NCBI GenBank assembly: GCA_963803805.1
Contig: CAWDOD010000001.1
Location: 64,001-128,000, forward strand
From: an uncultured cyanobacterium
Lineage (GTDB): Bacteria > Cyanobacteriota > Cyanobacteriia > Cyanobacteriales > CAWCAG01
Direction: 5' to 3'
DNA length: 64,000 nt
The stretch's first letter is position 1, and each line of letters opens with the position of its first letter. The position numbers and the translations under genes were made by a program. Positions 26,167 to 49,938 of the stretch are shown here, in pieces. A model generated the notes under the pieces. The model made no database searches. It saw nothing but the letters and a program-made list of their open reading frames with translations, and was not told the origin of the DNA.

Positions 26167-26168
26167 CT

Positions 26169-30145: not shown

Positions 30146-30210
30146 GATTTAGAAGGTTTGCTCATTGTTTTAATTTGGTTTAGAAGTAGTGCTTAAAATG
30201 CTACTGTGCT

Positions 30211-31233
30211 TTATAACTTTTCTAGGTACTTTTCAACTAAAGGAGGGTACGTTTTTAGAAGAGCAAATGGTAATTTTTTTCCTTTATAAGCTGGATGGCT
30301 TTTACCTGACTGTATTTCTCTCGAAGTAGCTACATCAGGTAGTGTTTGGTATAGTTGCGGAAAGAACTCTGACTTTAAAATGGTAGGTATAGAGTTAAGA
30401 ACCTCCTTTCTAGTAATTGTCTTTCTAAACCATCTCCTTGGGCTAGATAATTCAATTAGATTGAGACACATTAATTGAATTAGATAAGGATGGCCAGCAG
30501 TTTGACGAATTATTTCTTCTACGGCTGCGGGTTCGTAAACCTTACTAGGAAAGTCAAGAGTGGGATTCTCTATCAACTCACGAGACTCTGCTTTCTCTAA
30601 GTAAGGAAGGTGGAGATACTCTGTACTAATTAAACAGTCGCTCCAGTGATAGGGAAGCTGTTCAAAAGTTTGGGAACTGGTAAAGAACAATTGCCATTTC
30701 GCACGATGTTGGATTAGATAGCGAAATAGACCAAGTATGGCTGTAATATTTTTTCTTTTCGTTAGTTTTTCAAGGTATTCAACATCATCTAAACAGAGAA
30801 GAAAGCGTTTACTAGGAAAAGCTTTTTCTATTGCCATAAACCAGCTTTGCATGGCAAGGAATGGTTCACGTGAGAGGTTTTCTTCATCTGGTTTTGGTAG
30901 TTCGTAGTTGAATGGTTTTGGTAATTCGTAGCTAGATGCAGTAATTTTATTTATGAAATATTTTACTAACTCTAAGGAATTTTCAATTTTTACTGTCTTA
31001 TCAAGTTTGAAACTTGAGATTAATGGAATAACTTCAAGGCTCAAACTTCGAGGCAAATGATTTAGTAAAGATGTTTTACCAACACCTTTAATACCGTGTA
31101 TGAAGTAGCTCATTGGAGGAATAAGCTTATGTTCAGTAGTTAGCCTTTTAAGTATTTCTCTCCTACCTTTGAATAAGTGAGAGTTGGAGTTTAAAGTTAA
31201 GGCTTCTTCGGTGTAATATGCTGTTGTTTTCAT
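30211..31233 (-). CDS. STAND-like ATPase
   Basis: FKGRR, GIKGVGKTS, CLDDVE, QTAGHPYLIQL. Confidence 0.8.
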   Translation of the reverse strand: MKTTAYYTEEALTLNSNSHLFKGRREILKRLTTEHKLIPPMSYFIHGIKGVGKTSLLNHLPRSLSLEVIPLISSFKLDKTVKIENSLELVKYFINKITASSYELPKPFNYELPKPDEENLSREPFLAMQSWFMAIEKAFPSKRFLLCLDDVEYLEKLTKRKNITAILGLFRYLIQHRAKWQLFFTSSQTFEQLPYHWSDCLISTEYLHLPYLEKAESRELIENPTLDFPSKVYEPAAVEEIIRQTAGHPYLIQLMCLNLIELSSPRRWFRKTITRKEVLNSIPTILKSEFFPQLYQTLPDVATSREIQSGKSHPAYKGKKLPFALLKTYPPLVEKYLEKL

Positions 31234-33047: not shown

Positions 33048-36000
33048 TCAAATCGCTGCAACCCACTGTCTGATTAAGGCTTGCTTGCTCTTAGTTAGTA
33101 ATTTGCAAGCTTGGTTGAGCTTCTTCCTTGTAAAGGTAGCTGCTAACTTCCCGTTGGAGTAGAGAGAGTTTTTTAAGTCTTCTGGGGAGTAGCAGTTGCT
33201 CAATAAATTTGTAGCAGCCTCAACTTCCGGGACTAGCAATCTCGCTATTTGTGGTACTTCGTAATATTGGTTAAAGAACATAGCAGACTGTTCTGGATGA
33301 AGTTCTAATTGCTCGAAAATAAGGAGATATCTAGAATCTAACTCTAATGTTGCTAGTAGTCTAGCTATCTTCTCAGTATCTCCTGAATCAATAGCTTGCA
33401 GGAAAGACTTGATGGTTATTTTAGAAGAATTTTCTGGTTGTGTAACCAGTGATTCTTCGGGTTGTTGAGTTTGTAGCAACACTTGTATAGCAGGGGATTG
33501 CAGATACTCGTTACAAAACAGCTTTGCAGCCTCTGGAAACTCATCAAGCTGACCATAGACTAGTTGCCATCTTTGTTCAATCTTAAGCCCTTTCAGGAAG
33601 CTACAAACTGCTTCTAAGCTTTTGTTGATAGCTGATATAAAGTTCTCTAAAAGAGCTTGCTGTTGTTGTTCGATTTCTTTTTGGAGTTTTTCTTCATCTC
33701 TCTTCAACCAGAATGCAAACACTTCTTCTCTTTCATCCCAGATAGGAATTGCATTGCCTTCTTCATCAAAAACTGGTTTGTTGTCTTCGTCTTTCTCCCA
33801 ACTGGGCATTACTGGGCCGTAGATTCTTACTTGCTTGCCTCTACCTCCTTCTTTCCCTAGCAAGGGGACATCTAGTCCAACTAACTTAAGTAGTTGTTTA
33901 AATATGGTTACTGGAGAGGAATTGGGATTGATGGTAACGCCTAACCATTCTTTGATTGCTGGGGCTTTTTCTATACAGACTTGCTGGAACTGAATTAGAT
34001 CAGGGTCATCGTTACGGTGCATCTGTTTTTTGGCAAAGCGAAGTTTGGTAAAGCCGATTTCATCTAAACCTAAAACTTTGGCCCATTTCTGGCTTTTATT
34101 TAAGTCGGGGGAGAAGTACTGCCCCTCAAATATTTGTGCCTGGGCGCTTCTTCTTGATTTGTGGGGTAAATGGGCGCGTCCAGCTTCTAGTTGGTAGTCA
34201 AGGTTCCAAAGCTTGTATAAGCCGGCCTCATCACGTTCTACTAAATCTGCCGTAACTGGTAAGCCGTATTTGAGCTTGATTATGCCTTTTTTTAGCTCCT
34301 TCTGTTCTTGGGGTGTTCTGGTTTGTTGATCTTGCAGGGTCTGTATTTCTTCTTCATTTTTATCGTTTGCACCCTCAACCCCCCGGCAATACCTTTGGTA
34401 GTTGGAGTTTCTGATTGTTTTAATTTCGGATTTTTTATTTTTGGCCGTTGCAGAATCATTCTCAACTTCTATAACTTCGTATCCTTCCTCTTTAATGCCG
34501 ATGAGAACTGATTCTCTGTAGGTAGACATTTCTAAGTTTATTAGCGCCGCCATTCGACACCAGGTTTGGAGCGCTGCGGGACAAACTTCTATTAGTTCTT
34601 CATCGTCGAAGAATGCTCCAGATTGAATGAGTAAGTTTAGGTGCTGCTTGGTTTTGTTTTGCTGGCTAGCATAGAGTGATTTACTGCTGGTTGAGCCATT
34701 ACCAACTTTTTTAGAACCAGTTTTACTAGACCAAAAATAGCGAGGAACATTCTCTCTTACTCTTCTCAAAGACTGCCTAACACTATTTTCTGTCTGGACT
34801 CCGTAGGCTATGCCCCAAACACTATCAAAGTGACCCCTAACATCGAAACTTATCCCTGTCTCGATAATTGGGGAAGCGACGACAATATCGTACTGGGGTA
34901 GGATTTCGTTGAGGTTAGCCATACTACCATAGGCCGCATGGTTGGGATCTGCTAGGGTATCTTTGTCTATACGGAGGATTGAATACTGCCTCTTTTTAAA
35001 ATTGTGTAGAAGTAAACAACCAAGCAGAATACTTTTTTGCATCGCTAACCAAATAATTGGTAACTCATTATTTTGCGATCGCAGGCTTAGTAATTTGGTT
35101 TCTAAAGTTTGGGTTCCCCAGGCTGATTTGGCTTGTTGCCCACTTAGGCAGATGAAGGCTTTACCTCCATTTAGTACGTGTTTTTCCAGATCATTTATCA
35201 GATGACCAGGATTATTTTCTGTGTAGTTGTAAAGTTTTGTTTTCTTCTTTCTCTGGTCATCGGCTACGATGGTGAGAGTTTTAACTTTATGTCCGATGAT
35301 TTTTTGGTAGAAATTAACGGTCATGTCGTTGAGATCGGCACTGATGAGGATGACTTTGCCTCCAGTGGCAATGATGTAACGAATTATCTCTTTAAGTCTT
35401 TGGAGAATTGGGACACGTTTTTTTCTTACTTCTGTATTGGCATTTAGTAGATGCCAGAGGCTTTGATCTGCTTCATCTAAAAGCAACCAACAGCCATGAA
35501 GCGACTCTAATTCTTCTTCATTCCTAGCTACTTTGAGTAAAGAATCGTAACAAAGAACTTTGCCAAAACAACCTTCGTATTCGTCGGCTTCTTTTTCATT
35601 AACATTCATTAAGGAAAAGCGGTTAGCTTGGGCATTATTGAGAGTTTGGCGGTGGGTGAGGCTAATGGTTTTACCACCGTTTTGCTGGTGTTGAGCAATT
35701 TTTTCCGCTACCGATTCGGTTTTTCCGGCCCCTTTAGGAGCGCGGAGGAGAATTAGTTGGTTGTCGGCGAAGTCGGTTAAATCTCCTAAGTAGGGAGATT
35801 TGTCAGTTAAGCGGATGACTTGATCTGGTTTCTTGGAGAGGCGTTTTTTGTAGTTTAACCAGAATGAGTGTAGGGATTGAGCAGAATCAACTACTAATTC
35901 AAAGGTTTCTGCCCCTACGTTATAGATAAAGTCGTCACAACCTTTACCGAACTTATTGTCCCAGTTCGTAACAAAAACGTCACAACCTTCTTTTTTAAAG

Positions 36001-36731
36001 AGTCTTCCGGTTTTACGAGTTGCGATCGCGACGTTTTTGATGGTTTTTTGCTTTGTATCCTCATCGAAAGCGAAGATGATTTTTCTACCTTTGGTGGCGA
36101 ATATTTCTAAGTCGGGGATAAGCTTTGCTTTACCAATTTTCTGCCCTAAGTCATCTTTGGGAGCGCGGTAGCCTCCGTAGATGCCGGGAAGCCCTATTGC
36201 TGCGTAGCCTTGGGAGATTAAACAGGCGGTTTTTTTGGCCGCTTCTGTAATGGTGAGGGGGACTTGGGATTTAATTACCCATCTCCAAAAACCTAGTGCT
36301 TGTCCCTCTACTACTTTGATATTTTCCGGGAGGGGTCGGTCGTAGCGGGCCGCGACCATTTTCCAAATTTTTAGGGACACCTTGGGGCAGAATATCCTTG
36401 TTGGAGTTTTGGGAGGATGTTCGTATTTTATTTGTTTTCTTTTACCGTATTCGACCCAGGAACGGGGGTGATCTGGTTTGAAACAACCCCAAGTCATCTC
36501 ATGGTGGGTCAAAGGATCTACTCCATTAAACCAAAAGCCACCTTTTTCAGTGTGGGCATATTTGGTTAGGTAGTGTCTTCTTACCCTACCGTCGTTACGA
36601 CGTTCTGATCTGGGTAGAGAACCAAGCAGCGCATCGAGAGCGGCGGCTCCTTCTAAGGAGTGGAAATTTAATGAGGCGATCTCTGGGGCGATCGCACTTT
36701 TTAGTAGTTCTTCTTGATGCTCTGATTTCAT
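33048..36731 (-). CDS. Cyanobacterial plasmid replication protein (DUF3854 primase-like domain plus SF2-like helicase; CyRepA1 type)
   Basis: KYEHPPK, ITEAAKKTACLISQGYAAIGLPGI, AFDED, KGCDD; APKGAGKT, LLDEAD, SPIIETGISFD, QSLRRVR. Confidence 0.9.
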   Translation of the reverse strand: MKSEHQEELLKSAIAPEIASLNFHSLEGAAALDALLGSLPRSERRNDGRVRRHYLTKYAHTEKGGFWFNGVDPLTHHEMTWGCFKPDHPRSWVEYGKRKQIKYEHPPKTPTRIFCPKVSLKIWKMVAARYDRPLPENIKVVEGQALGFWRWVIKSQVPLTITEAAKKTACLISQGYAAIGLPGIYGGYRAPKDDLGQKIGKAKLIPDLEIFATKGRKIIFAFDEDTKQKTIKNVAIATRKTGRLFKKEGCDVFVTNWDNKFGKGCDDFIYNVGAETFELVVDSAQSLHSFWLNYKKRLSKKPDQVIRLTDKSPYLGDLTDFADNQLILLRAPKGAGKTESVAEKIAQHQQNGGKTISLTHRQTLNNAQANRFSLMNVNEKEADEYEGCFGKVLCYDSLLKVARNEEELESLHGCWLLLDEADQSLWHLLNANTEVRKKRVPILQRLKEIIRYIIATGGKVILISADLNDMTVNFYQKIIGHKVKTLTIVADDQRKKKTKLYNYTENNPGHLINDLEKHVLNGGKAFICLSGQQAKSAWGTQTLETKLLSLRSQNNELPIIWLAMQKSILLGCLLLHNFKKRQYSILRIDKDTLADPNHAAYGSMANLNEILPQYDIVVASPIIETGISFDVRGHFDSVWGIAYGVQTENSVRQSLRRVRENVPRYFWSSKTGSKKVGNGSTSSKSLYASQQNKTKQHLNLLIQSGAFFDDEELIEVCPAALQTWCRMAALINLEMSTYRESVLIGIKEEGYEVIEVENDSATAKNKKSEIKTIRNSNYQRYCRGVEGANDKNEEEIQTLQDQQTRTPQEQKELKKGIIKLKYGLPVTADLVERDEAGLYKLWNLDYQLEAGRAHLPHKSRRSAQAQIFEGQYFSPDLNKSQKWAKVLGLDEIGFTKLRFAKKQMHRNDDPDLIQFQQVCIEKAPAIKEWLGVTINPNSSPVTIFKQLLKLVGLDVPLLGKEGGRGKQVRIYGPVMPSWEKDEDNKPVFDEEGNAIPIWDEREEVFAFWLKRDEEKLQKEIEQQQQALLENFISAINKSLEAVCSFLKGLKIEQRWQLVYGQLDEFPEAAKLFCNEYLQSPAIQVLLQTQQPEESLVTQPENSSKITIKSFLQAIDSGDTEKIARLLATLELDSRYLLIFEQLELHPEQSAMFFNQYYEVPQIARLLVPEVEAATNLLSNCYSPEDLKNSLYSNGKLAATFTRKKLNQACKLLTKSKQALIRQWVAAI

Positions 36732-38333: not shown

Positions 38334-38487
38334 GAGTAGGTAACTACTGTAACATTTTAGTGTCTTTTTAAGCTACTAAAATGAATTACTTTTTCATCTT
38401 TGTGAAAGATTATGCTATAAGAAGAAGGCGAACAAAATTGGCAGCCAACAATTCAACCAAAATGGTAGCCAATAAAGGTGACACAAA

Positions 38488-38673
38488 ATGGCTAAAAACT
38501 TTACAGAGACAGGATTAAACAACATGGAAACTACAGATTACCAAGATAAAAACGAGGCAGAGGTGGCTACCACCTTTACCAAAAAAGAGTTAATCGCCAA
38601 ACTTGGCAGGTCAGATAGATGTGTCAGGGGATGGATCAAAACCGTAAAAGATGCTTATTCCTTCAAGCTGTGA
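38488..38673 (+). pseudogene. Truncated paralog (HTH part only) of 39347..40099
   Basis: METTDYQDKNEAEVATTFTKK..LGRSDRCVRGWIK near-identical, then early stop. Confidence 0.7.
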
Positions 38674-38808: not shown

Positions 38809-39129
38809 TTATTCATCCTCATCTTCATCTTCAAACCTAGTACGATGGCTGCGACTAGCCTCTTCGTAATAATCCCGAATTCCAGATATTACTTCTTGCT
38901 CACTTATACCTAAAGATTCAGCTTTCCTTCTAATAGCTTCTTCTGTGACTTCAGCATTAGCACGAAGCCATTCCAACAAAGCTGATTGTAGGATGTCTGC
39001 TTTGGTGAGTCCTAATATTCCACCAGAAACCATGACTTGATGATAAAGCTCGCGAGAAATAGAACCACGCATCTGCTGTTTGCTGGTTGTAATGACCTTT
39101 TCAGTCTTCTTGCTGCCTTTTTTTGCCAT
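38809..39129 (-). CDS. Ribbon-helix-helix regulator
   Basis: QQMRGSISRELYHQV...LTKADILQSALLEWL; divergent from the 39347 operon. Confidence 0.65.
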   Translation of the reverse strand: MAKKGSKKTEKVITTSKQQMRGSISRELYHQVMVSGGILGLTKADILQSALLEWLRANAEVTEEAIRRKAESLGISEQEVISGIRDYYEEASRSHRTRFEDEDEDE

Positions 39130-39199
39130 TTCCTATTAACTGCATTGCTTGCTCTCTTACATATCATACCGCCCTTAAATGATTTGTAGATTCTGTTTG

Positions 39200-39249
39200 A
39201 GTACTCAGCAAGTACTTGATGAATATTTGCTGAGTACTTGACAAGTACT
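39200..39249. promoter_or_regulatory. Phased operator array: five palindromic hexamers at 11-bp period
   Basis: AGTACT at 39200, 39211, 39233, 39244 and AATATT at 39222. Confidence 0.75.
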
Positions 39250-39346
39250 TAGGGAAGCGATACTTTAAAAAAAAGCTGGCTACCACGATGGCAATAGTGG
39301 CAGCCAACAATTCAACCAAAATGGTAGCCAATAAAGGTGACACAAA

Positions 39347-40099
39347 ATGGCTAAAAACCTTACAGAGAAAAGATTTAAAAACATGGAAACCACAGACTAC
39401 CAAGATAAAAACGAGGCAGAGGTGGCTACCACCTTTACCAAGAAAGACTTAATCTCCGAACTTGGCAGGTCAGATAGATGTGTCAGGGGATGGATTAAAG
39501 TAGCAAGAAATGCTTATCACTGGATGCCTGAGAAGGAATTAGTGATCAAAGATGGCAAACGTCATGTATACACCGCTTTTATTCTTGAGCAATTGAAAGC
39601 TATCAAATCTCACCTTGAAGCTGGTGGGACAATCGAGACTTGGGAGAACTCTGTAGTTCAACCTGTCAAGAAAGAGGTTGAGGAGGAAGTAAAGACTGTT
39701 CCCAGTTCAGCTATTGAAATACTAGGACAGCAGCTAGAAATCGGGTTAGATATTCCTACAATTCACACCACCGAGGGCTTAGTTGATCTAAATGCTTTAG
39801 AAACTTTCGGCACAGAAGCCTTAACTCACAACCAGGAAGAATTAGTTGCTGAACAAGAACGGTTAGCAAGAACTAAAAATAAAGTTGCAGATGGTTTGTT
39901 GTCTTTGGCTAAGCAAATCTTCACCAATCAAGTTGCTGAAGAAACTGAAAGGCAGACGGATTTAGAGAAAGCTAGCGCAGAAGGTTTTAACCAAGAACTT
40001 CTAAGAATACAAGCTTATGAGGGTGGAAAGATGGAAGCTCGTAAAGCTTATCAGAAAGTCAAAGCAAGCGTGGGAAAGTCTTCCTCTGCTCAGTCCTAA
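39347..40099 (+). CDS. HTH plus coiled-coil protein (250 aa); predicted -1 frameshift isoform of 281 aa ending at 40191
   Basis: FTKKDLISELGRSDRCVRGWIK HTH; E/Q/K-rich helices; G_GGA_AAG at 40072-40078. Confidence 0.8.
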   Translation: MAKNLTEKRFKNMETTDYQDKNEAEVATTFTKKDLISELGRSDRCVRGWIKVARNAYHWMPEKELVIKDGKRHVYTAFILEQLKAIKSHLEAGGTIETWENSVVQPVKKEVEEEVKTVPSSAIEILGQQLEIGLDIPTIHTTEGLVDLNALETFGTEALTHNQEELVAEQERLARTKNKVADGLLSLAKQIFTNQVAEETERQTDLEKASAEGFNQELLRIQAYEGGKMEARKAYQKVKASVGKSSSAQS

Positions 40100-40134
40100 T
40101 TCTGCTACTGCTTGCAGTAGGAATGGGAATGGGA
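40072..40134 (+). other. Programmed -1 ribosomal frameshift signal (slippery heptamer plus downstream hairpin)
   Basis: In-phase G GGA AAG; hairpin core CTACTGC-TT-GCAGTAG at 40105-40120, extendable by ATTC/GAAT and TCCT/GGGA. Confidence 0.65.
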
Positions 40135-40159
40135 TATTACCTTGCGAACCACAACAACA

Positions 40160-40249
40160 ATGAAACAACAAACCATCAAAATCAGCATTGAACTCGCTCT
40201 ATGGCTTCTTACTATTGCAGCTATTCATTACTTGAGCAATCGCCCATGA
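40160..40249 (+). CDS. 29-aa hydrophobic peptide
   Basis: MKQQTIKISIELALWLLTIAAIHYLSNRP*; ATGA overlap with the next gene. Confidence 0.55.
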   Translation: MKQQTIKISIELALWLLTIAAIHYLSNRP

Positions 40250-40419
40250 TAGCCAAGAACGATAGTAGCGAATACAAACAGATAAATGGTTGTGTTCCAA
40301 AAGAGATAGCCATTAAATTCAAAGTTACCTGTCAGTTCTTGGAAATTCCTGTGAGTGAGGGAGTAGAACGAGCATTGTTTTTGTGGCTGTTTTGGATCGA
40401 AATACAGAAGGAGCAATAG
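40246..40419 (+). CDS. Small RHH protein (57 aa)
   Basis: YKQINGCVPKEIAIKFK...VSEGVERALFLWL; start coupled by ATGA (track start 40201). Confidence 0.65.
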   Translation: MIAKNDSSEYKQINGCVPKEIAIKFKVTCQFLEIPVSEGVERALFLWLFWIEIQKEQ

Positions 40420-40470
40420 TTGGCAAAGACTATCGCTCCAAACTCAATAATAACCTAACCAATTGTAACC

Positions 40471-40626
40471 ATGAATACTCCAGGTATCAAAACATTAATA
40501 GGAGTTTGTTGCATCGCCACTGCGATCGCAATACTTGTTGGAGGCATTTTTATAGCTATTGATGCTAATTCGGCTACTGCTAACAGTAACTCAACAAGCC
40601 AGACAAGAGGGAGTAGCAGAAGGTAG
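40471..40626 (+). CDS. 51-aa single-TM / signal peptide protein ending RGSSRR
   Basis: MNTPGIKTLIGVCCIATAIAILVGGIFIAIDANSATANSNSTSQTRGSSRR*. Confidence 0.6.
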   Translation: MNTPGIKTLIGVCCIATAIAILVGGIFIAIDANSATANSNSTSQTRGSSRR

Positions 40627-40706
40627 ATAGGAAAAAGCAGCCGGGGAGTGTCGTCCGAAGTATGTCAAAAATCCGGCTGCAATAGGATTCATTACTGGTA
40701 ACTATT

Positions 40707-40901
40707 ATGGACGAAAACAAAAGCGCTTTGCAAAAAGAGGCTCCTTATTTGCTAAAGCTTCAAGAAAATTTATCTCAAGCTTCCTTTGAAAAACTCAAAG
40801 CGAAGAGGATGCAATTGATGAATCAGCTTAGAGAACTACAAGTTGACTACCAAGCTTATGTACAGACTTGGTTGAACTTGTACTCCGATTCCGATAACTA
40901 A
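40707..40901 (+). CDS. Small coiled-coil protein
   Basis: 64-aa heptad-rich ORF within the operon. Confidence 0.65.
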   Translation: MDENKSALQKEAPYLLKLQENLSQASFEKLKAKRMQLMNQLRELQVDYQAYVQTWLNLYSDSDN

Positions 40902-40924
40902 AAATCAACAATTAGGAGATTAAA

Positions 40925-41602
40925 ATGGTAAGAAGAAAAGCAGAAATAGAAGCAGAATTAGCAGCAAAAAACGAACGGTTGCAGGAAGTGCTTGGTGAGC
41001 TAAAGGAGGCAAAGAATCAGCTTCAACCGACTAAACCTAGTAAGCTTGCCCAAACGAAGGTTCCGGGTTTACCTAACTTTACCCCTAAAACTTCAAAGGG
41101 TATGATTCCCCAGTTCAATGAAGGGGATTTCGTAATCAAAGACCCTTTAAACCCAAAGCTACCAACTGTATCCATCGAGCAGCATGAGGAGGCTGTTGAG
41201 AATTATAAGGGGGCAAATCGCGCTCTTGATCTTTATGGAATGGGTTTTGACACCACAGGCAAAATGTTTAGTGTTGTTGGCAAACGAGCTAAAGCTGTTG
41301 GTGCTGGTATTGATGCTGTAACCGAAACAGAAAAAACTAGGGGAGCTTTCCTTAACTATTTAGGGCAGTTGCAGTCTAACCAACAATCTGCGATCGCATT
41401 AAACGCAGCAACATATAAAACGGGGATAGACTCTCAATCAGCAGCATTCACCATAACTGGACTGGACTACTCTTTGCAGGAAGCTGAAGTGAAGAGTCAG
41501 CTTGCTTTAGGTAAGTTAGCAGAAACTAGCAACAAACTCAGATTACTCAAAGAATCTTTGGGTAACGATTTTATTGAAGCCAAAGCAGAAGAAACCGTGT
41601 AA
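40925..41602 (+). CDS. Coiled-coil / helical hypothetical protein
   Basis: 225 aa, good RBS (AGGAG). Confidence 0.75.
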   Translation: MVRRKAEIEAELAAKNERLQEVLGELKEAKNQLQPTKPSKLAQTKVPGLPNFTPKTSKGMIPQFNEGDFVIKDPLNPKLPTVSIEQHEEAVENYKGANRALDLYGMGFDTTGKMFSVVGKRAKAVGAGIDAVTETEKTRGAFLNYLGQLQSNQQSAIALNAATYKTGIDSQSAAFTITGLDYSLQEAEVKSQLALGKLAETSNKLRLLKESLGNDFIEAKAEETV

Positions 41603-41611
41603 AAGGAGTAA

Positions 41612-43789
41612 ATGATGATGAAACTTGATAAGAAAAAAGAAGAAGCTTTTTTTCTTATTACTTCTGCCTTGCTGGGGACTGGCATCGGTTTTGCAATAGG
41701 ATTTGGGGTCAAAGCATCTCCAGTTGTAGTAGCTGCTGTAGCGGCTGCTGGAGGCTTGCCGGCAGCCTTAATTACCTACCAGGTATCAGATAGTAGAAAT
41801 AGTAGGAAGCACCTACAAGAGGTCAAAAAACTTAATCAGGCCCATCGGAAGGAATTAAAAGAAGCTAAAGCCAAACTAGTTAAGTCTTCTAATCAATTGG
41901 AGAGGATATTTTATGCTAATACCTGTTTAGAAAAAGAAAATAGGGTTATTCCTAGGTTGAGGAAGGAAATAGCTGATTTATCTGCTGACTTAGAAGCAAG
42001 AATAGAAGCAATTAAGGTACTAGAAGAAGCAAACGAAACCTGGGAAGAAGGTTTTGATGACTTGTTAGAGAAGCAGTCAAACTCTAAGGCTCAACTGCTT
42101 GCTCAGCAAAGAGTTAGGGAAGAGCTTGTTTCTGTTTTTGACCATCATAACGGCTTTACTAAAAAAGCTATGAGTATAGCTTCGCAGATGGGGAAATTAG
42201 TAGAGGAAGCTGAGGGTAAAAATGATGCTTTGATCCTCAAAGATAAAGATGCAATGCTTCATTTTATGGATTCCTTAGAAGATTCTGGTAAGACTATGGC
42301 AGAAGCTAAGGCGGCATTTGCTGAAGAGAAGAATATCCTCAATGCCAAAATTCTTCATTTGGAGCGTCAGAATAAAGGTGAGTTGTTAGAGCCAGAATAT
42401 GGCCAACACGGCTATGATATTCCGGCTCAAATAGCTACTGATATTTGCCGAATCCTATGGAATAAGCATCAAGTACCTTTGAGGTTAGAAGGGGTAGAAA
42501 CCTCTAGAAGTGGGTTAAGTACAGCAGGATATGGTTATGGGGGTAATCAAGATTCTACCCAGCTTGTTAGCTTTATTAAAGACAAATCAAAAGCTCTTTG
42601 TGAACAGTTAGGGATTCATAAAATAACCAAGGTTGAGAAACTTGCGATCGCACCAGTGATTGCAGTTAGTTTTTTACGTGAATCAGTATTGAAAGAATCT
42701 GAGATTAAACTTCTGATTGGGAGTGGGGAAGAGTTCTTGAATTATGTAGTTAACCACCCAATCAGGTATAGGTTGATAGCAGATCCTGGTGAGGGTAAAA
42801 CTCCTACTACGGCTGTTATGTTATCGGCAATTCTTAAGTCTGGTTGCAAGACGGGTAACGTTCCCAATGGGCGCAAAGTTCCTCATACTTTAGTAGACGT
42901 TAGCTATCCAGATAGATACAGTTCTATTAAGGATGAAGAATATCCTTTAGATCGTTTTCTAAAGTATGCAACTACAAGAGAAGCAGTTAACAGCTTCAAT
43001 CAGGCTATTGAGGAATGGGAATATAGAAAAACTCATTTAGATTATGCTAAAAAGGTTTTTCAGATTCTTTTCTGGGATGAATTTGACAATACGATAAGTA
43101 GTGCTTCTAGTCCTAAAGATGTTGCTAACTCTCTTAAGATTTTACTAAAAGAAGGAGGACATTCCAACATTGGTTGGATACTCTCTGGACAGTCAGTAAT
43201 GACTCGTCAGATACCGGGCTTTACTAACGATGATCGGAGTTTGTTTACTGAAATAGTTATTGGTATTCCTAAAATTAGGAAATATTTACAAAACTATGGG
43301 AGAAAGCTAGGGGACAAAGTTAACAAAAAGCTATTAGAGAATCTTGATAGTATTGACGACTACGTTACTAGCAGAAATAGCAATATTGTCGATTCAGCTA
43401 GATTATTAAGAGTTAGTTTAGTAGTTGATAGCAAATCACCAAAACTTTTCTTCCTTCCTAACTTTGACTTAGCTAACTTTGACGAGGAAGCTATTAGAAA
43501 CTCAGAGAATGTAGCGAAACAAATTAGAAATGGAAGCTACCAAAGTAGATCCCAGACTAATGGGGGAGCAAAAGCTAAAAGCCAGTCAGGTCAACTGGTT
43601 AACCTATCCCAAGATTTGCCCCCACAAATGACTATAGAGGTACAACCCCAAACCCCAATTAGTAAGAAGATACCTTGTTGTCCTAAGTGTAACAGTACCA
43701 ACTTAGGGAAGAAATCAGCTAAGAGGTATTTATGTAAAGATTGTAGAAAAACTACAGGTGAACATTTGGTTAATTGGAAGAAAGTTTAG
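41612..43789 (+). CDS. Membrane-anchored coiled-coil FtsK/HerA-like ATPase with C-terminal Zn ribbon
   Basis: Two N-terminal TMs, long coiled coil, ADPGEGKT Walker A, LFWDEFD Walker B, ILSGQS, CPKC..CKDC. Confidence 0.7.
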   Translation: MMMKLDKKKEEAFFLITSALLGTGIGFAIGFGVKASPVVVAAVAAAGGLPAALITYQVSDSRNSRKHLQEVKKLNQAHRKELKEAKAKLVKSSNQLERIFYANTCLEKENRVIPRLRKEIADLSADLEARIEAIKVLEEANETWEEGFDDLLEKQSNSKAQLLAQQRVREELVSVFDHHNGFTKKAMSIASQMGKLVEEAEGKNDALILKDKDAMLHFMDSLEDSGKTMAEAKAAFAEEKNILNAKILHLERQNKGELLEPEYGQHGYDIPAQIATDICRILWNKHQVPLRLEGVETSRSGLSTAGYGYGGNQDSTQLVSFIKDKSKALCEQLGIHKITKVEKLAIAPVIAVSFLRESVLKESEIKLLIGSGEEFLNYVVNHPIRYRLIADPGEGKTPTTAVMLSAILKSGCKTGNVPNGRKVPHTLVDVSYPDRYSSIKDEEYPLDRFLKYATTREAVNSFNQAIEEWEYRKTHLDYAKKVFQILFWDEFDNTISSASSPKDVANSLKILLKEGGHSNIGWILSGQSVMTRQIPGFTNDDRSLFTEIVIGIPKIRKYLQNYGRKLGDKVNKKLLENLDSIDDYVTSRNSNIVDSARLLRVSLVVDSKSPKLFFLPNFDLANFDEEAIRNSENVAKQIRNGSYQSRSQTNGGAKAKSQSGQLVNLSQDLPPQMTIEVQPQTPISKKIPCCPKCNSTNLGKKSAKRYLCKDCRKTTGEHLVNWKKV

Positions 43790-43795
43790 CTTAAC

Positions 43796-43833
43796 AAGGT
43801 GATAAGCAAATTTGTTTGTCACCTTAAGTTTTA
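43796..43833 (+). terminator. Stem-loop ending the 39347-43789 operon
   Basis: AAGGTGATAAGC-aaattt-GTTTGTCACCTT with G-U pairs. Confidence 0.6.
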
Positions 43834-43983
43834 AGCAAGCTTTATATTTAGTTCTTTTCAAAAACTAGAATAAACTAACTTCCAAAAGTGTAGACTCAGG
43901 TATTTTTAACTTTTGCTTCAGTCAGCTTACTAAAAGAAAGAGACAAGCTACCTGAAGAAGCAGTAATTTATTAAAGCAATATT

Positions 43984-44430
43984 ATGACTCGCTACCGAGA
44001 ATATCTATATTCAAAAGAATGGCAAAATAACCATAGAGTCTGGTTGAAGAAAGCCAACCACAGATGCTGTATACTTCCTTGGTTAAAATTGGGACAAGTT
44101 AAGGGAAAGTACCATCCTTACTCAATCCACCATACCAATTATGAAAACCTTGGCTCCGAGAAGTTTGGGCATGATGTTTTACCTGTATCTCGGTTTACCC
44201 ATCGGTTTATTATTCATGGTGTTTTATCAGGTTTTAAGCGTCCTTCTGAACAAAAGATATATCCTAACTTACCTCAAAGAATTGCCCATAATTGGGGACG
44301 ATTAGTTTTAAATAGACCTGCTCAATGCTTACTCATAGGTTTATTAGCAAGTCTTGTTTGGACATTTAATTGGGCTTATTCAGTGGCGATAATTTTGTTC
44401 TATACAGGTTTACAAGTTTGGTTTGACTAA
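43984..44430 (+). CDS. HNH-like nuclease with hydrophobic C-terminus
   Basis: YREYLYSKEW...IHHTNYENLGSE...DVLPVSRFTHRFIIH. Confidence 0.6.
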   Translation: MTRYREYLYSKEWQNNHRVWLKKANHRCCILPWLKLGQVKGKYHPYSIHHTNYENLGSEKFGHDVLPVSRFTHRFIIHGVLSGFKRPSEQKIYPNLPQRIAHNWGRLVLNRPAQCLLIGLLASLVWTFNWAYSVAIILFYTGLQVWFD

Positions 44431-45385
44431 CTATAGAATTTTACAACTATTAGATATGCAATACGATCAACCAGACTATCTACCTAAATTCAATCAAACT
44501 AGGGGCTATATTCCTAGTAGTTTTAATTTAATAAGAGCGTTCAACGAGCTTTGTCTTGAACCTCAATTTCTTAGCGATCAGTACTACCAAGCTTGTAGTC
44601 GATTAGGAGTTACTTGGAGCCAGTGCCAAGGAATTAAGTATTACCTTCAGTTATATAAGCTTTGTCGAGAAGTTAAAGGTAAGCTTTATCCCACAGGATT
44701 AGGTACTAATTTACTTCACGAATGGGACGGCTGCTTAGAGAATATTAATTCTCTTTATTTGCTGCATTGGAAGTCTCTACAATCACCTTGTTATTCTGCT
44801 TCTCTTTGGTGTCTCTTTTTTCAAAGTAACTTCTCTGAATTCACTAAGCAGGAACTCATTTTAGGCTTACAAAGGTTTGTTAAAAGCGAGAAACTAAATG
44901 TAGCTCGCTCTTCTATTATTTGCGATTGTGATTGGTTAATTAATAGTTATAGCCACGATTATTCTTGGACTAAAAGCCCCTTCAACCGCTTCCAGGGAAA
45001 GGTTAGCCTTGATGTGCTTCATACAACGAATAAATTTAACCAACAGAAAACATACATTTGGGAGTTCCTCAAACAAGGAAAACCGGATGTAGATGAGGCA
45101 GTAATTCTGGCTGCTTGTTTGGAGTTTGCAGGTAGTCGTGGATTAATTTCTTTGACAAATCTTACTTATGCACCTGGCTCTCCGGGTAGGGCTTTTAAGT
45201 TGCTGCATGACCTAGCCTTAACAGAGAAGCTGGAGCGGGTGATTAAAGATTGGCAACTACACTCAGAGGTGCAGTTACTTGTAGATGAAAATAACGCGGT
45301 TAGTCTCCAGGTATTAGTTGAGCCTAAAAAATTCGCATTTGAGGTACTAAATAAATATTATGAGCATTACTGCCATGAAGGATGA
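44423..45385 (+). CDS. DUF4007 (SspB-like) protein
   Basis: WDGCLENINSLYLLHW...FSEFT...ISLTNLTYAPGSPGRAFKL. Confidence 0.7.
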   Translation: MTNYRILQLLDMQYDQPDYLPKFNQTRGYIPSSFNLIRAFNELCLEPQFLSDQYYQACSRLGVTWSQCQGIKYYLQLYKLCREVKGKLYPTGLGTNLLHEWDGCLENINSLYLLHWKSLQSPCYSASLWCLFFQSNFSEFTKQELILGLQRFVKSEKLNVARSSIICDCDWLINSYSHDYSWTKSPFNRFQGKVSLDVLHTTNKFNQQKTYIWEFLKQGKPDVDEAVILAACLEFAGSRGLISLTNLTYAPGSPGRAFKLLHDLALTEKLERVIKDWQLHSEVQLLVDENNAVSLQVLVEPKKFAFEVLNKYYEHYCHEG

Positions 45386-46334
45386 CGTAAGGGCTTACTT
45401 AGATTCTATTGGTAGAGTTTCTCTGCTTAAAGCTGATGAAGAGGTACTGTTGGCTAAGGAGATTGCTCACTCTTCTAAGTTAAAAGTAGTTGGTGAGGAG
45501 CTTGCTAATGAATTAGGGCGACAACCAACTAAATCAGAGTGGGCTAGGGCTGTTGGTTTATCTGTAGACGAACTTGTTTATAAGTTAGAACTAGGGCAAA
45601 GCGCCAGAGACAAAATGATTAAAGCCAACTTGCGCTTAGTTGTCAAGATGGCAAAGAAGTATACCGGCCGTGGCTTGGATTTTATGGATCTAATTCAGGA
45701 AGGTAATCTTGGGCTGTTCAAAGCAGTAGAAATGTTTGATTACCGCAAGGGTTATAAGTTTTCTACTTATGCTTATTGGTGGATTTTTCAGTCTATTAAT
45801 CGGGGCATTGCTCAAAGGGGAAGAATAATTCGTTTGCCTGTTCATTTGCAGGAGAAGTACACCAAGATAAACAAGGCAACAGGGAGGCTTGCCAGGAAAT
45901 TAGGGTGCTATCCTTCCCTGGCAGAATTATCTCTTGAGGCAAGAATAGAGCCAGAGGAACTTGAGAGATTGAGAAAATGCTTTGCGAGTGTTGCCTCTTT
46001 AAATATTAAGATTGGAGAAGAGCAAGACAAGGAACTTCTCGACTTCATCGCTACTGATGCACCGGATGAAGAATTAATTCAAACTGAACTTGAAGAAAAG
46101 GTTGCTCAACTGTTAAGAGAAGTTCTCAATCCACAGGAAGAGGAAGTTCTTCGTTTACGCTACCGCATTGGGCAAAAACAGCCTAGCAATAGCGAAAAAC
46201 CAATCAGCCTGAAAAAAGTGGGTGAGGCGATGAATAACATCTCAAGAGAGAGAGTGCGACAGATTGAGGCGAAAGCTTTTGAAAAGCTGAAAAATGAAGA
46301 AGCTTTTTGGGAACTAATTGAATTTTTACGTTAG
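45360..46334 (+). CDS. RpoD-family (group 2-like) sigma-70 factor
   Basis: DDVRAYL..IGR, ANLRLVV, DLIQEGNLGL, GYKFSTYAYWWI, SRERVRQIE. Confidence 0.92.
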   Translation: MSITAMKDDVRAYLDSIGRVSLLKADEEVLLAKEIAHSSKLKVVGEELANELGRQPTKSEWARAVGLSVDELVYKLELGQSARDKMIKANLRLVVKMAKKYTGRGLDFMDLIQEGNLGLFKAVEMFDYRKGYKFSTYAYWWIFQSINRGIAQRGRIIRLPVHLQEKYTKINKATGRLARKLGCYPSLAELSLEARIEPEELERLRKCFASVASLNIKIGEEQDKELLDFIATDAPDEELIQTELEEKVAQLLREVLNPQEEEVLRLRYRIGQKQPSNSEKPISLKKVGEAMNNISRERVRQIEAKAFEKLKNEEAFWELIEFLR

Positions 46335-46408: not shown

Positions 46409-47896
46409 ATGATAGCAACAACAACTGATACTGAACCAATCGTTTTATCCCTATTTAGTGGGGTAGGAGGCTTAGATTTGGGTTTCCATGCCCAAGGATT
46501 AGAAATTGCGATCGCAATCGAGGCTGATGAAAATGCAGCTTCTCAATACCAGAAGAATTTCCCAAAAACTAAGGTAATTCAAGAGGATATTAGTCAAGTA
46601 AAAGTTAAGGATATTGCTAAGCTTTTAGACCCGCAGCGCCCTTTGATTATTATTGGTGGGCCACCTTGTCAGGGATTCTCTCAAGCAGGGACGAGGGAGG
46701 TAGATGATCCGCGTAACTTGATGATTGGGGAGTTTTTACGGTTTGTGGTTGAATTGAAACCTACTTTCTTTATCATGGAGAATGTCACAGGAGTATTAAT
46801 TCCTCGTTACAAGGAATTAATTGAGGGGTATCGTACCTCGGTAACAGAAGCTGGCTATCAACTTAGTGAATGGGTTTTAAATGCTGTTGATTTCGGTGTT
46901 CCCCAGAATCGGAAGCGGTTATTTTGGGTTGGAGGGCTTGAAGAGAAGCTGATTGCACCTCCTCCGGCTTATTCGGAACCAACAACTGTTAGGGCTGCAA
47001 TCGCAGATTTAGTGGGATACGATGAGGCGACTTGGACTAGGGATAAGCGAGGGGAATTTGCTCAATATCTTCTGGAAATTTTTCCTCCTATTACTGGTTG
47101 GGATGAATCGAGGTTAAGTAATTGCCAGCAGACTAATCACTCCTTAAAGGTAATTAAACGGTTTAAAGCTACTCCTAACGGTCAGTTAGAGCCGATTAGT
47201 CACTTTTATCGTCTTGACTGGGAAGGGGTTGCACCAACTGTCCGGGCTGGTGGTCGGGATAGGCATACGGCTACACGTCCAATTCATCCCCAAGAACATC
47301 GGGTCGTTACTCCCAGGGAAGCTGCACGGTTGCAGTCTTTTCCTGACTGGTTTGAGTTCTCAACTCCTAAAACCCATGCCCACCAGCAGATTGGTAACGC
47401 AGTACCTCCTTTATTAGCTTATTTTATTGCTGGAGTTGTTAAGAGGAGTTTTCCTGATCCTGCTGATAGTTTAGTTGAGCAGTTGAATTGGTTGCAGCAG
47501 CAGTTGCAGGAGAAAGATAAGGTTATTGAAAAGCTACAAGCTAATCTTGAACAACTGAAGAAAGTAAATGTACTTAGGGATGAGGAACTTTACTCTGGGG
47601 CTAAGGTATTGGTGCTTGAAGATGATTACTGGCAGGGCTGCACGGGGGTAGTTACTGGCAGAAATGGTGGTGGTTGGTGGGTAAATTTAGATGCAAGTTG
47701 TACAGGGAACGATGTGATTAGTCGTGTCGTTTTCAAGGCACGGCAGTTAACAGCTAATTTACCTGATTTTAATAGCTTGGTTTTTCAAGCACACAAGCAG
47801 CGTTATGCCAATGAGAATGAGAGGTTGCGCTTTAGACTGAATGGTTTGCAAAAAAGACTTGAAGAATTTGAAACTAACGAAAGGAAGGCTAGTTAG
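46409..47896 (+). CDS. DNA (cytosine-5) methyltransferase with C-terminal extension
   Basis: LFSGVGG, GGPPCQGFS, MENV, PQNRKR, EAARLQSFPD, IGNAVPP. Confidence 0.92.
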   Translation: MIATTTDTEPIVLSLFSGVGGLDLGFHAQGLEIAIAIEADENAASQYQKNFPKTKVIQEDISQVKVKDIAKLLDPQRPLIIIGGPPCQGFSQAGTREVDDPRNLMIGEFLRFVVELKPTFFIMENVTGVLIPRYKELIEGYRTSVTEAGYQLSEWVLNAVDFGVPQNRKRLFWVGGLEEKLIAPPPAYSEPTTVRAAIADLVGYDEATWTRDKRGEFAQYLLEIFPPITGWDESRLSNCQQTNHSLKVIKRFKATPNGQLEPISHFYRLDWEGVAPTVRAGGRDRHTATRPIHPQEHRVVTPREAARLQSFPDWFEFSTPKTHAHQQIGNAVPPLLAYFIAGVVKRSFPDPADSLVEQLNWLQQQLQEKDKVIEKLQANLEQLKKVNVLRDEELYSGAKVLVLEDDYWQGCTGVVTGRNGGGWWVNLDASCTGNDVISRVVFKARQLTANLPDFNSLVFQAHKQRYANENERLRFRLNGLQKRLEEFETNERKAS

Positions 47897-48601: not shown

Positions 48602-49938
48602 TTGACACTCCCCTGCCTAAAGGCGAGGGGATTCTTCCTTCATAGACCCAGCTTGTTTAGACAGGTTTTCACCAATCCAAATAGAGGCTAAATCTCCAGA
48701 AGCGTGAGTTCCCGTATGCCCTACGGTACTTAAGGCTCGATTCAGAATATTAATGGCTGCGTTATGGTCGCGGTCTAGAGTACATCCACACTGACACGTA
48801 TGTGTGCGAGTACTCAGAGATTTTTTGACCGTTGCACCACAACTAGAGCAATCTTGGGATGTGTAAGCCGGATTAACCGCAACGGTCGTCTTGCCGAATA
48901 CCTTCCCGTAGCGCTCTAGCCAAGTTCTGAACTGATACCAACCTACATCATTAATCGATTTAGCCAGACAGTGATTTTTAACCAAATTCCGAACTCTCAA
49001 GTCTTCATAAGCTACCAAATCGTTAGACTGGATTACGCACCGTGCCAATTTTACGGCATGGTCTTTACGTTGCCTACTTATCTTAAGATGCTGTCTACCG
49101 AGTCGATTAATCGCTTTTTTGCGGTTAGCAGAACCTTTCTTTTTGCGAGAAACCCGACGCTGATGAAACTTCGTGCGTTCCTCTCCTAAGCGATAGAATC
49201 TAGGGTTAGGAACTGTTTCGCTGTTGGAGTCGGTATAAAACTCCTTCAGTCCCACGTCTAACCCAATTGCCCGTCCACTTGGGTTGATGGACTCTTCCCG
49301 TTCTACTTTCACGCAGAACTGGACATAATAACCATCAGCACGACGAATAATGCGAACACGCTTAATAGAGTCGATATCGTAGAAGTGGAGGTCGTAACCA
49401 CCTTTGAGCTTGAGTTTACCAATTCCCTTCTTGTCGGTGAAACTGATGTGCTTTCGCTCCTCGGACAATTTCCAACCACTAACTTTGTACTCAACAGAGC
49501 GCGTGTTCTGCTTGAATTTCGGATAGCCTTTTTTACCTACTACTTTCAGTTTGCAGTTAGCGTAGAATCGTAAAATACTTGACCATGCACGCTCTACTGA
49601 GGTTTGGCAAGCGTGAGAATTTAGTTCTTTGACAAAAGAAAACTCGGTTCTAAGTTTGGTGTTGTAGCGAAAAATCTCTTTTTTGCCAATGTTGTGATTA
49701 TCCATCCAATATCGTAGACATTTGTTCCGAACAAACTGTGCGGTACGAATAGCTTCTAGGATTGCTGAAGATTGCTGTGGGTTGGGGTAGGCTTTAAATT
49801 CTAAGACTATCACTCTTGATCAACCTGTTTATCGCGCTTCAGATTGATTCTACAATATCACCGCCTCAAACTTCCACTCTATCTGACCAACCCTCAAAGT
49901 CCCCCTAGAAGGGGGAGGCTTGAAACCCATTATCTTTG
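48602..49938 (-). mobile_element. Non-autonomous IS200/IS605-family (IS1341-like) element, tnpB only
   Basis: Right end ...GAATCCCCTCGCCTTTAGGCAGGGGAGTGTCAA with hairpin; left-end hairpin CCCCCTTCTAGGGGG; target motif TTGAC adjacent; no TSD. Confidence 0.88.
48617..49813 (-). CDS. tnpB: RNA-guided endonuclease TnpB
   Basis: N-terminal HTH, RuvC GLDVG / AYEDL / DRDHNAA, CSSC..CQCG zinc finger. Confidence 0.95.
   Translation of the reverse strand: MIVLEFKAYPNPQQSSAILEAIRTAQFVRNKCLRYWMDNHNIGKKEIFRYNTKLRTEFSFVKELNSHACQTSVERAWSSILRFYANCKLKVVGKKGYPKFKQNTRSVEYKVSGWKLSEERKHISFTDKKGIGKLKLKGGYDLHFYDIDSIKRVRIIRRADGYYVQFCVKVEREESINPSGRAIGLDVGLKEFYTDSNSETVPNPRFYRLGEERTKFHQRRVSRKKKGSANRKKAINRLGRQHLKISRQRKDHAVKLARCVIQSNDLVAYEDLRVRNLVKNHCLAKSINDVGWYQFRTWLERYGKVFGKTTVAVNPAYTSQDCSSCGATVKKSLSTRTHTCQCGCTLDRDHNAAINILNRALSTVGHTGTHASGDLASIWIGENLSKQAGSMKEESPRL

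Follow-up and report, generated by a model that had tools for sequence, protein, structure and literature searches.

What a cyanobacterial plasmid that already encodes a type IV secretion system (T4SS) does with an additional membrane-anchored motor protein is the question raised by the locus described here. The locus occupies positions 38809–43833 of a stretch of 64,000 nucleotides (nt), hereafter the window, which covers positions 64,001 to 128,000 of contig CAWDOD010000001.1 from an uncultured cyanobacterium (assembly GCA_963803805.1). The contig is 159,974 bp long and belongs to a 5.3-Mb genome in which HetR is encoded (6e-77); HetR marks filamentous cyanobacteria. An earlier note, made from the sequence alone, had regarded the locus as a DNA-translocation or spreading module comparable with the transfer functions of Streptomyces plasmids. 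Our analyses showed that the ATPase of 725 amino acids (aa) encoded at the end of the operon has an FtsK/HerA-type fold, that the operon keeps its gene order on related plasmids, and that nearly all named hosts belong to filamentous genera. With somewhat less than even confidence, we favour the reading that the module is a TraB- or TdtA-like machine, in which a plasmid-borne, membrane-anchored FtsK-like pump would export or spread double-stranded DNA (dsDNA). The features on which the argument depends are the following:

33048–36731, minus strand: CyRepA1-family plasmid replication protein, DUF3854 plus helicase (NCBIfam NF042913, 1.4e-116; Pfam DUF3854, 1.9e-47)
38809–39129, minus strand: 106-aa protein with an acidic tail, putative ribbon-helix-helix (RHH) repressor (from the list of open reading frames, ORFs; RHH from the sequence pattern alone)
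39200–39249, no strand: AGTACT palindrome array (four copies), divergent promoter region
39347–40099, plus strand: 250-aa protein, first gene of the operon, putative DNA-binding protein (ORF)
40201–40419, plus strand: 72-aa protein, putative second RHH-like regulator
40471–40626, plus strand: 51-aa peptide with a hydrophobic N-terminal segment (signal or transmembrane, TM) and a C-terminal RGSSRR
40707–40901, plus strand: 64-aa acidic helical protein
40925–41602, plus strand: 225-aa long-helix protein
41612–43789, plus strand: 725-aa ATPase
43789–43836, plus strand: terminator-like hairpin at the end of the operon

Every ORF named in the earlier note was found where it had been placed. The CyRepA1 gene is the linked replicon gene and is divergent to the operon.

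The architecture that had been proposed for the ATPase was borne out in all its parts. The protein starts with two predicted TM helices (residues 11–56 hydrophobic, Kyte-Doolittle 19-residue mean up to 1.95), and this membrane anchor is kept in 92 of the 94 full-length family representatives (at least 640 aa) found among the 150 best listed. The anchor is followed by a coiled coil (~60–260), where positions ~38–260 of the family profile match coiled-coil proteins only, by an FtsK-like alpha domain and a RecA-type motor (~261–640), by a disordered linker and by a zinc ribbon (~686–725). The motifs ADPGEGKT, WDEFD and SGQS are all present, and the GQS motif presumably acts as a sensor. Numbered in the 465-aa piece that was modelled, the motif residues G135, K136, T140, E230, D232, G266, Q267 and S268 either do not vary or show at least 90% conservation among the 36 homologues aligned. 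The pattern of these residues makes it likely that the ATPase is an active enzyme.

The structure of the motor was predicted with AlphaFold for residues 261–725, based on the alignment of 36 homologues (pLDDT 84.9, pTM 0.67). The model contains one P-loop domain, and its disordered linker (model residues 383–424) leads into a four-cysteine beta ribbon formed by the CxxC...CxxC motif. This ribbon weakly matches IS1/IS1595 (InsA-type) zinc-binding models (E 0.0017), and two relatives score above the Pfam cut-off. The best Foldseek match in the PDB was the FtsK motor 2iut (E 4.8e-11), followed by 6t8g and 2ius (FtsK range to 1e-9) and by TcpA of plasmid pCW3 (6o1x, E 2.5e-9), and then by EssC/EccC, HerA and RecA-like proteins. 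An independent exhaustive structural alignment against 48,161 chains gave the highest Z score to TcpA (14.4, 291 residues aligned) and further scores of 13.7 for FtsK, 13.3 for both EssC D3 and EccC (EssC/EccC range 12.6–13.3), 13.1 for DndH-C, 12.7 for VirB4, ~11 for HerA and 10.9 for TrwB. Only FtsK (model residues 8–370) and TcpA (5–373) cover the first ~100 residues of the model, where other matches begin near residue 100; an alpha-like domain thus stands ahead of the RecA-like beta domain. At the level of fold, the ATPase is a member of the FtsK/HerA superfamily, as the note had expected (Foldseek probability 1.00, Z 10–14; GK[ST], DE.D and GQS in 36 sequences), and according to the model its closest fold relatives are dsDNA translocases.

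Neither the ATPase nor the rest of the operon showed sequence-level membership in FtsK, TraB or any Spd family. Likewise, PDB sequence searches with the ATPase alone or with its profile returned no FtsK; the profile search was swamped by coiled-coil matches because full-length columns had been kept. As the fold match comes without a sequence link, the protein represents a sequence-orphan branch of the superfamily. The full hidden Markov model search of 1.84 billion cluster representatives found 591 members at E ≤ 1e-3 and 107 at E ≤ 1e-30.

The position of TcpA at the top of the exhaustive search raises the possibility that the ATPase is a type IV coupling protein of the TcpA kind, which would hand the plasmid to its own type IV channel or to one provided in trans. 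Both proteins have two N-terminal membrane helices, which together with a cytoplasmic nucleoside triphosphatase (NTPase) make up the topology of a coupling protein, both share the domain ahead of the RecA fold, and T4SS genes are present in the window, namely a relaxase and a TraC/VirB4-like ATPase (4.6e-11), with a weak TrbI match on the contig. The partners of TcpA are a complete Tcp T4SS and a relaxase. However, the contig encodes a canonical VirD4/TraG-type coupling protein (TraG-D_C 5.4e-25) just outside the window and next to the T4SS genes, and the coupling-protein models PF02534 and PF12696 match that other gene (~60.7–61.9 kb of the contig) and not the ATPase. Because the T4SS has its own coupling protein, the operon is extra to it, and the module is separate from the T4SS, as first proposed.

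Most relatives of the operon are carried by plasmids of another type. In PLSDB, homologues were found on 12 plasmids (Nostoc 7, Fischerella 3, Tolypothrix 1 and Calothrix 1), all 12 typed as non-mobilizable. A distant family member used as query found 11 plasmids of Fischerella, Leptolyngbya, Calothrix, Nostoc, Anabaena cylindrica PCC 7122 and Rivularia. Of these 11, 10 are typed as non-mobilizable, and the two sets share plasmid p8 of Calothrix sp. PCC 7716 and three Fischerella plasmids. Combined, 22 of the 23 rows are non-mobilizable, and many of the plasmids are only 16–45 kb long. No relaxase or VirB4 was present among the proteins scanned from two small plasmids. An FtsK-like, membrane-associated translocase on a plasmid without relaxase and T4SS is the TraB-type arrangement; TcpA, in contrast, works with both, most carrier plasmids of the module have neither, and the one T4SS-bearing carrier has its own VirD4-type protein. 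We therefore consider a coupling protein the least probable of the explanations weighed here.

The conservation of gene order, on which the earlier note had staked its proposal, was analysed in 50 loci outside the window (3 from PLSDB and 47 genome contigs, with L013 and L014 being a single contig read in both directions), each count being limited to adequately flanked loci. The order proved conserved. The 225-aa gene lies directly 5' of the ATPase gene in 40 of the 41 loci with at least 800 nt upstream, and in 12 metagenome loci too. A CyRepA-like gene is found upstream on the other strand in 25 of the 27 loci with at least 8 kb upstream. A GIY-YIG/T5orf172 nuclease gene directly follows the ATPase gene in 34/45 loci, and a ResT/TelK-type protelomerase is encoded farther downstream in 32/35 loci and not in the window; the identities of both come from Pfam on L001 and L002. 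Judged by these neighbourhoods, the operon is a conserved plasmid backbone module and the partner of the CyRepA replicon, and in most relatives it is partnered with a protelomerase, which predicts hairpin-ended linear plasmids. This context, the strongest we found, had escaped the earlier note. A megablast search of the locus against PLSDB gave no match, and a metagenome scan with a single protein gave nothing; when an alignment was used as the query, 21 loci were recovered, the closest of them reaching no more than 60% across a fragment.

Three observations on individual relatives may be added. On L013/L014, a 25,366-bp contig of a Nodularia metagenome-assembled genome (MAG), the module occurs twice, in opposite orientation and at identical coordinates from each end, as would be expected of an assembly that has run round a hairpin telomere. 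Plasmid4 of Nostoc linckia NIES-25 (36 kb; L009, 9152–11374 and 18816–21167) carries two divergent ATPase paralogues, 41% and 27% identical to that of the window. On pANACY.06 of Anabaena cylindrica PCC 7122 (L085, 7001–8317), an ATPase-like stretch without a listed coding sequence follows a GIY-YIG gene beside CyRepA1; it may be a pseudogene or merely unannotated, as the PLSDB table omits pseudogenes. A part for the ATPase in telomere resolution was also considered and dropped, the window copy and some relatives having no intact protelomerase nearby; protelomerases are not known to need an ATPase.

The nuclease gene and the fold matches bear on another explanation, namely that the operon serves defence, exclusion or protein export, either as DndH- or HerA-linked immunity or as secretion of the small helical proteins in the manner of a type VII system. 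EssC/EccC share the FtsK-like P-loop fold and a membrane anchor with the ATPase, DndH-C, TdpAB and HerA-Sir2 are among the matches, an SspB/DUF4007-like gene is located in the window at 44423–45385, and the small helical proteins and the signal-like peptide could be substrates. EssC/EccC have three ATPase domains. The protein described here, on the other hand, has a single one, lacks an FHA domain and belongs to a plasmid backbone, and WXG100 or LXG families were found neither among its neighbours nor elsewhere in the Pfam and NCBIfam scans. The operon proteins gave no meaningful PADLOC match. Moreover, the linkage to the replication gene holds across very divergent plasmids, unlike what is seen in mobile defence islands, and we regard this explanation as improbable.

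The place of the module, between the replication gene and the protelomerase gene, fits a role in segregation or septal clearance, in which an FtsK/SpoIIIE-like pump would act in the dividing cell and move copies of the mostly linear plasmid to either side of the closing septum or keep them there, with the phased repeats as its centromere and the small proteins as the binders. In N15-type linear plasmid prophages, the partition operon has just that position. FtsK, the closest fold match, natively segregates DNA at the septum, and the helically phased array beside a divergent gene for a small putative DNA-binding protein resembles centromeres of the parC/ParR type. Phased arrays stand beside the operon both in the window and in locus L010; a centromere is read here from sequence, and the folds of the small proteins are putative. 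None of the 19 scanned proteins of Nostoc plasmid pNPM10 (21.9 kb, first 3.5 kb unscanned) matched ParA, ParM or TubZ. Leptolyngbya boryana plasmid pLBY, however, has a clear ParA (AAA_31, 5.1e-33) with a small partner 1.5 kb from the module, and both Calothrix p8 and the window carry actin-like candidates with weak matches. That of the window is an actin-like protein with matches to FcmB (2.7e-8) and to ParM chains (E 0.003–0.004), so that of the ParMR system earlier ascribed to the plasmid only a weak actin-like match stands. In the operon itself, Pfam and NCBIfam gave no match to ParA, actin or tubulin families, and its sole NTPase is FtsK-like by fold, a motor that occurs in no known partition type. 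A conserved peptide with a signal-like N-terminus would be unexpected in a partition system, and trapping of a 16–45-kb plasmid by the septum seems unlikely to us. On balance, segregation is an unlikely explanation, though the likeliest of the alternatives.

Virus-like packaging or vesicle export was also weighed. The small hairpin-ended replicons would then be elements that lack a capsid or are enclosed by a membrane, the ATPase would load their DNA into a particle or vesicle, and the 250-aa putative HTH protein would resemble a small terminase. Protelomerase-type linear replicons are typical of N15-like phage-plasmids. In BFVD, a 712-aa Nodularia phage protein (E 3.6e-9) is matched along with FtsK-like proteins of phages and packaging ATPases of the A32 type, B204 of STIV2 is matched with Z 10.6, and the leads of the 250-aa protein in the protein atlas include a MerR-like cluster in which 74% of the members have Terminase_5 (score 0.84). 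Against this, the PHROG scan gave no capsid, portal or virion match, 0/31 IMG/VR pattern matches encode a relative, three family members compared by tblastn with 50,697 phage records gave nothing, and the 16–22-kb plasmids carry no capsid-size gene of a recognisable family. This makes packaging very improbable.

The host range of the family is a further line of evidence. A search of one genome per species found 47 loci, all cyanobacterial and mostly from Nostoc, with Anabaena, Nodularia, Scytonema, Mojavia, Symploca, Caldora, Coleofasciculus and Zarconia as the other hosts. Three of the 47 are MAG contigs labelled Microcystaceae or Chroococcales, and one of these copies is likely mis-binned because it shares 94% identity with copies from Nostoc. 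The named hosts are cyanobacteria without exception, and nearly all belong to filamentous genera. Among 401 genomes sampled evenly across the phylum, of which 101 encode HetR, 9 were carriers at E ≤ 1e-10 (including the genome of the window); all 9 are HetR-positive, and the family was found in 0/300 HetR-negative genomes. The carriers fall into only four family codes, so the distribution is clustered and does not represent nine independent events. The suggested link with multicellular hosts therefore holds in the samples searched (PLSDB, genome loci and the 401 genomes).

Taken together, the anchor, the FtsK-type motor, the zinc ribbon on a flexible linker, the neighbouring nuclease, the DNA-binding-like proteins and the phased array, along with the tiny envelope-directed products, the lack of relaxase and T4SS and the restriction to filamentous hosts, are our reasons for reading the module as a dsDNA pump. 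In such a machine, the 725-aa protein would be inserted into the cytoplasmic membrane by its N-terminal helical hairpin and would form an oligomer, presumably a ring, through the long coiled coil and the FtsK-type alpha/beta motor. It could be aimed at its plasmid by the C-terminal zinc ribbon or by the DNA-binding proteins of the operon seated on the phased repeat array. Plasmid dsDNA would then be pushed out of the cell, in most relatives with the hairpin-ended linear plasmid threaded end-first, into a neighbouring cell of the filament or into a recipient filament, with no dependence on a T4SS. The 225-aa and 64-aa proteins and the small hydrophobic peptide or peptides may be diverse Spd-like accessory and envelope parts, and the divergent small protein or proteins would act at the AGTACT array as kil-kor-style repressors of the operon. 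More specifically, the module could support conjugation or spreading of the Streptomyces kind, independent of a T4SS, in which linear dsDNA passes from cell to cell, possibly in the septal junction region, or to other filaments; this we hold to be possible rather than probable. Recipients would perhaps take up the DNA by their competence machinery, as in Thermus transjugation.

Two systems are the closest functional models for this reading, Streptomyces TraB with its Spd proteins and Thermus TdtA. In Streptomyces, plasmids pass from hypha to hypha in double-stranded form through the FtsK-like TraB alone, their spread past the cross-walls is the work of a varied set of small Spd proteins, and the plasmids carry a small repressor, short cis repeats and 3–7 diverse small spd genes in operons with overlapping stop and start codons (PMC4447253). 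The likeness to the TraB/Spd/TraR-KorA systems (pSVH1, pIJ101) lies in the FtsK-like membrane ATPase, the small plasmids and the filamentous host, and also in several short, fast-evolving accessory genes, some for membrane proteins, in a repressor gene with cis repeats and in the lack of relaxase and T4SS (PMC4447253). The systems differ in that the cyanobacterial protein has no sequence similarity to TraB, has ~200 aa of coiled coil between anchor and motor, and ends in a zinc ribbon and not in the winged helix-turn-helix (wHTH) by which TraB binds the 8-bp direct repeats of clt. Furthermore, the TraB repressor is of the GntR type, in place of the putative small RHH-like protein found here, and the cyanobacterial hosts have two membranes and mostly protelomerase-type linear plasmids, whose transfer is putative.

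FtsK/SpoIIIE proteins share the alpha and beta motor, and they too run from a membrane anchor over a long linker to the motor and end in a small domain that is flexibly tethered. FtsK has four membrane helices and works as a hexameric ring around dsDNA, whereas the protein described here, for which a ring is presumed, has two hydrophobic helices, a coiled coil for the disordered linker and the four-cysteine beta ribbon for the gamma wHTH that reads polar DNA motifs; it is plasmid-borne, and the host keeps its canonical FtsK. TdtA of the integrative and conjugative element (ICE) ICEth1 of Thermus thermophilus is a membrane-located hexamer that pushes dsDNA from the donor, and the nucleases of its operon are needed for transfer (PMC5365140). 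By description only, the two systems are alike in having a membrane ATPase, a short operon with nucleases and a mobile element that is T4SS-independent (PMC5365140), the counterpart here being the nuclease gene after the ATPase gene in most loci. The other accessory genes differ, and a replicating plasmid stands here in place of an ICE.

Several observations weigh against a pump for plasmid transfer. On the evidence of the model, the similarity to FtsK is structural only: the ATPase is unmatched by Pfam PF01580 (FtsK_SpoIIIE) even at E ≤ 10, a profile that finds the chromosomal FtsK of the host at 4.1e-43 (148.8 bits) and 0 of 49 distant family members, and hhalign of the family profile against the host FtsK gave a probability of 0.13. 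EssC/EccC and the defence-linked DndH score almost as high as the dsDNA translocases in the fold comparison. Pfam and NCBIfam recognised no peptidoglycan hydrolase, outer-membrane part or channel in the operon, and the host is two-membraned. Clt-like repeats were not found at the 3' end of the ATPase gene (43700–44100); a repeat search of this end and of the region upstream of CyRepA gave only short families of two or three copies, possibly due to chance, and the sole array found sits in the promoter and may be an operator only. Because the plasmid of the window already has a T4SS and a relaxase, a second transfer route would be redundant there. The 50 loci are not independent, as many come from Nostoc plasmids that are close kin (ATPase identity 66% as the pairwise median), and a single plasmid lineage with its own range of hosts may be all that lies behind the tie to filamentous cyanobacteria.

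No paper on an FtsK-like module of cyanobacterial plasmids was found in a search that left subscription journals outside. A term search of PMC8600333 gave 0 mentions of FtsK or TraB, and the relevant passages of the preprint on telomeric transposons (10.1101/2024.11.13.623437) do not mention the module. It is of a known kind by fold, that of the DNA translocases, and new by sequence, architecture and partners. Whatever its function, the operon characterises the common backbone of many linear plasmids, a large family of the protelomerase type, and adds a new branch of 591 cluster representatives to the FtsK/HerA superfamily. Although typed as non-mobilizable, the plasmids occur frequently in Nostoc, Fischerella, Calothrix and Leptolyngbya and in relatives of these. 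If the module is a transfer or spreading pump, it would reveal an unseen path by which genes move among multicellular cyanobacteria, symbiotic Nostoc among them, and would explain the movement of many such 'non-mobilizable' plasmids. It would also be the first case of dsDNA conjugation outside monoderm and Thermus lineages and a second, independent recruitment of FtsK-type motors for plasmid movement in filamentous bacteria, and CyRepA with the operon would make a compact cassette for self-spreading vectors in strains that are hard to transform.

The small proteins of the operon are less readily classified. None of the eight operon proteins gave a meaningful family match in Pfam, NCBIfam, PHROGs or PADLOC, and hence the RHH and helix-turn-helix (HTH) labels given to them before are guesses from sequence pattern. 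Searches of the same four collections and of PDB sequences lent no support to RHH for the 106-aa and 72-aa proteins or to HTH for the 250-aa protein, for which a language model gives a weak, sub-threshold lead to clusters of the MerR-HTH type (179 shared features, score 0.87). Its N-terminal part may thus be a MerR-like HTH, and its C-terminal half is helical; the TM segment once suggested for it is absent (hydropathy maximum 0.75). Positional homologues in L009, L010, L039 and L042 share a motif around 'FT.K.L....S.R.V..W/Y....A..W.PE', and an HTH-type protein with the shared motif is first in the operon in the Nostoc linckia, Symploca and Caldora loci. Homologues of the 72-aa protein in L001, L010, L018 and L036 (33–48% identity) are encoded on the opposite strand in the divergent position, and a chromosomal homologue is present on contig C2 of the same genome (E 5e-8).

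Of the two TM peptides described previously, the 51-aa one is strongly hydrophobic (Kyte-Doolittle 2.77). The 29-aa one exists as an ORF; its hydropathy of 1.64 is marginal, it overlaps the 72-aa gene, and no conserved counterpart was seen. Peptides of ~45–60 aa with a hydrophobic N-terminus and a C-terminal (H)RGxxRR take this same place in at least 12 loci, that of the window among them. They have a signal-like N-terminus and a proline-rich middle, match no known family, and were seen in the window (40471–40626), in L001 (8534–8689), in L015, L018, L022, L031, L033 and L035 and in others. An acidic protein of 58–66 aa with the C-terminal motif L[EQ][IV].[YF]Q is encoded directly 5' of the 225-aa gene; across the 52 loci in which that gene occurs, it takes 41 distinct sequences. 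The small genes evolve too fast for BLAST, and their positions are conserved.

The 225-aa protein is the most conserved partner of the ATPase. Its AlphaFold model (16 sequences, pLDDT 72.1, pTM 0.27) has helices at 5–31 and 84–211, that is, a short N-terminal helix, a disordered stretch with a conserved DPLNP motif and an uninterrupted helix of ~128 residues. Foldseek found nothing at E ≤ 0.001 with this model, essentially a single long helix, and the protein atlas gave nothing either (best score 0.78). A predicted complex of the ATPase with the 225-aa protein scored 0.00 in two runs without controls and carries no weight either way. On Nostoc plasmid L001, helical proteins at 365–1081 and 8693–8881 have weak, sub-threshold matches to Pfam Snf7 (E 5.5e-4) and the CdvA coiled coil (E 6.5e-3). 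The matches are probably noise from coiled coils and are mentioned for the part that the two families play in membrane scission.

The operator array claimed upstream of the operon is present, with AGTACT at 39200, 39211, 39233 and 39244 (spacing 11, 22 and 11 nt), that is, four sites within 50 nt compared with 25 in the whole 64-kb window. By its sequence and place it could serve as operator, as centromere or as a site of the clt kind. Locus L010 of Symploca (6449–6605) has five direct repeats of 11 nt (spacing 22, 11, 22 and 25) and two palindromes of 18 nt just 5' of the first operon gene, with the same place and helical phasing and a different sequence. The terminator hairpin described at the other end was also recovered directly after the stop codon of the ATPase gene (−20.7 kcal/mol, z −4.1, 0/200 shuffles as stable), with an inverted repeat at 43796–43825 inside it.

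The remaining features at the edges of the operon are as follows:

38433–38673, plus strand: partial duplicate of the operon leader and the first ~59 codons of the 250-aa gene
38488–38673, plus strand: 61-aa ORF closing the partial duplicate
40142–40249, plus strand: doubtful 35-aa ORF (TTG start; 29 aa from an internal ATG)
43984–44430, plus strand: 148-aa downstream protein, C-terminal segments marginally hydrophobic (very weak PHROG HNH match, E 0.029)

The duplicate forms a direct repeat of 159 nt (38433–38591 and 39292–39450, 93% identical) and at the protein level is 76% identical to the start of the 250-aa gene over 59 aa. The 106-aa gene is flanked by these direct repeats (38433–38673 and 39292–39530), which could mark an insertion or recombination scar. 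A homologue of the 148-aa protein (E 3.4e-34) is encoded directly 3' of the ATPase gene in metagenome locus L073, and the protein may be associated with the operon; its place is taken by the GIY-YIG/T5orf172 nuclease gene in 34 of 45 other loci.

The contig has no intact protelomerase. Outside the window, it carries broken ResT/TelK remnants at contig positions 17047–17418 and 10009–10516, with stop codons or shifted frames, which suggest descent from, or fusion with, a hairpin-ended linear plasmid. From this gene content, the large plasmid looks like a fusion that took in the CyRepA and operon backbone from a linear-plasmid lineage.

Downstream of the operon, the SspB-like gene (PADLOC SspB 1e-36), a PAPS-reductase-domain protein (52496–53485), an MT-A70 methylase (53710–54462) and a C5 cytosine methylase (46409–47896) have, as a group, the look of an island for defence or DNA modification. 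A sigma-70 factor of group-2-like type, complete with regions 1.2, 2, 3 and 4 (45360–46334), is encoded directly after the SspB-like gene. At 21032–31233, four ATPase_2/STAND-type NTPase genes in a run and a radical SAM gene may form another defence cluster. A TnpB/IS605-type gene (48617–49813) and a gene for a 1169-aa WD40-repeat protein (57565–61074) were also identified in the window.

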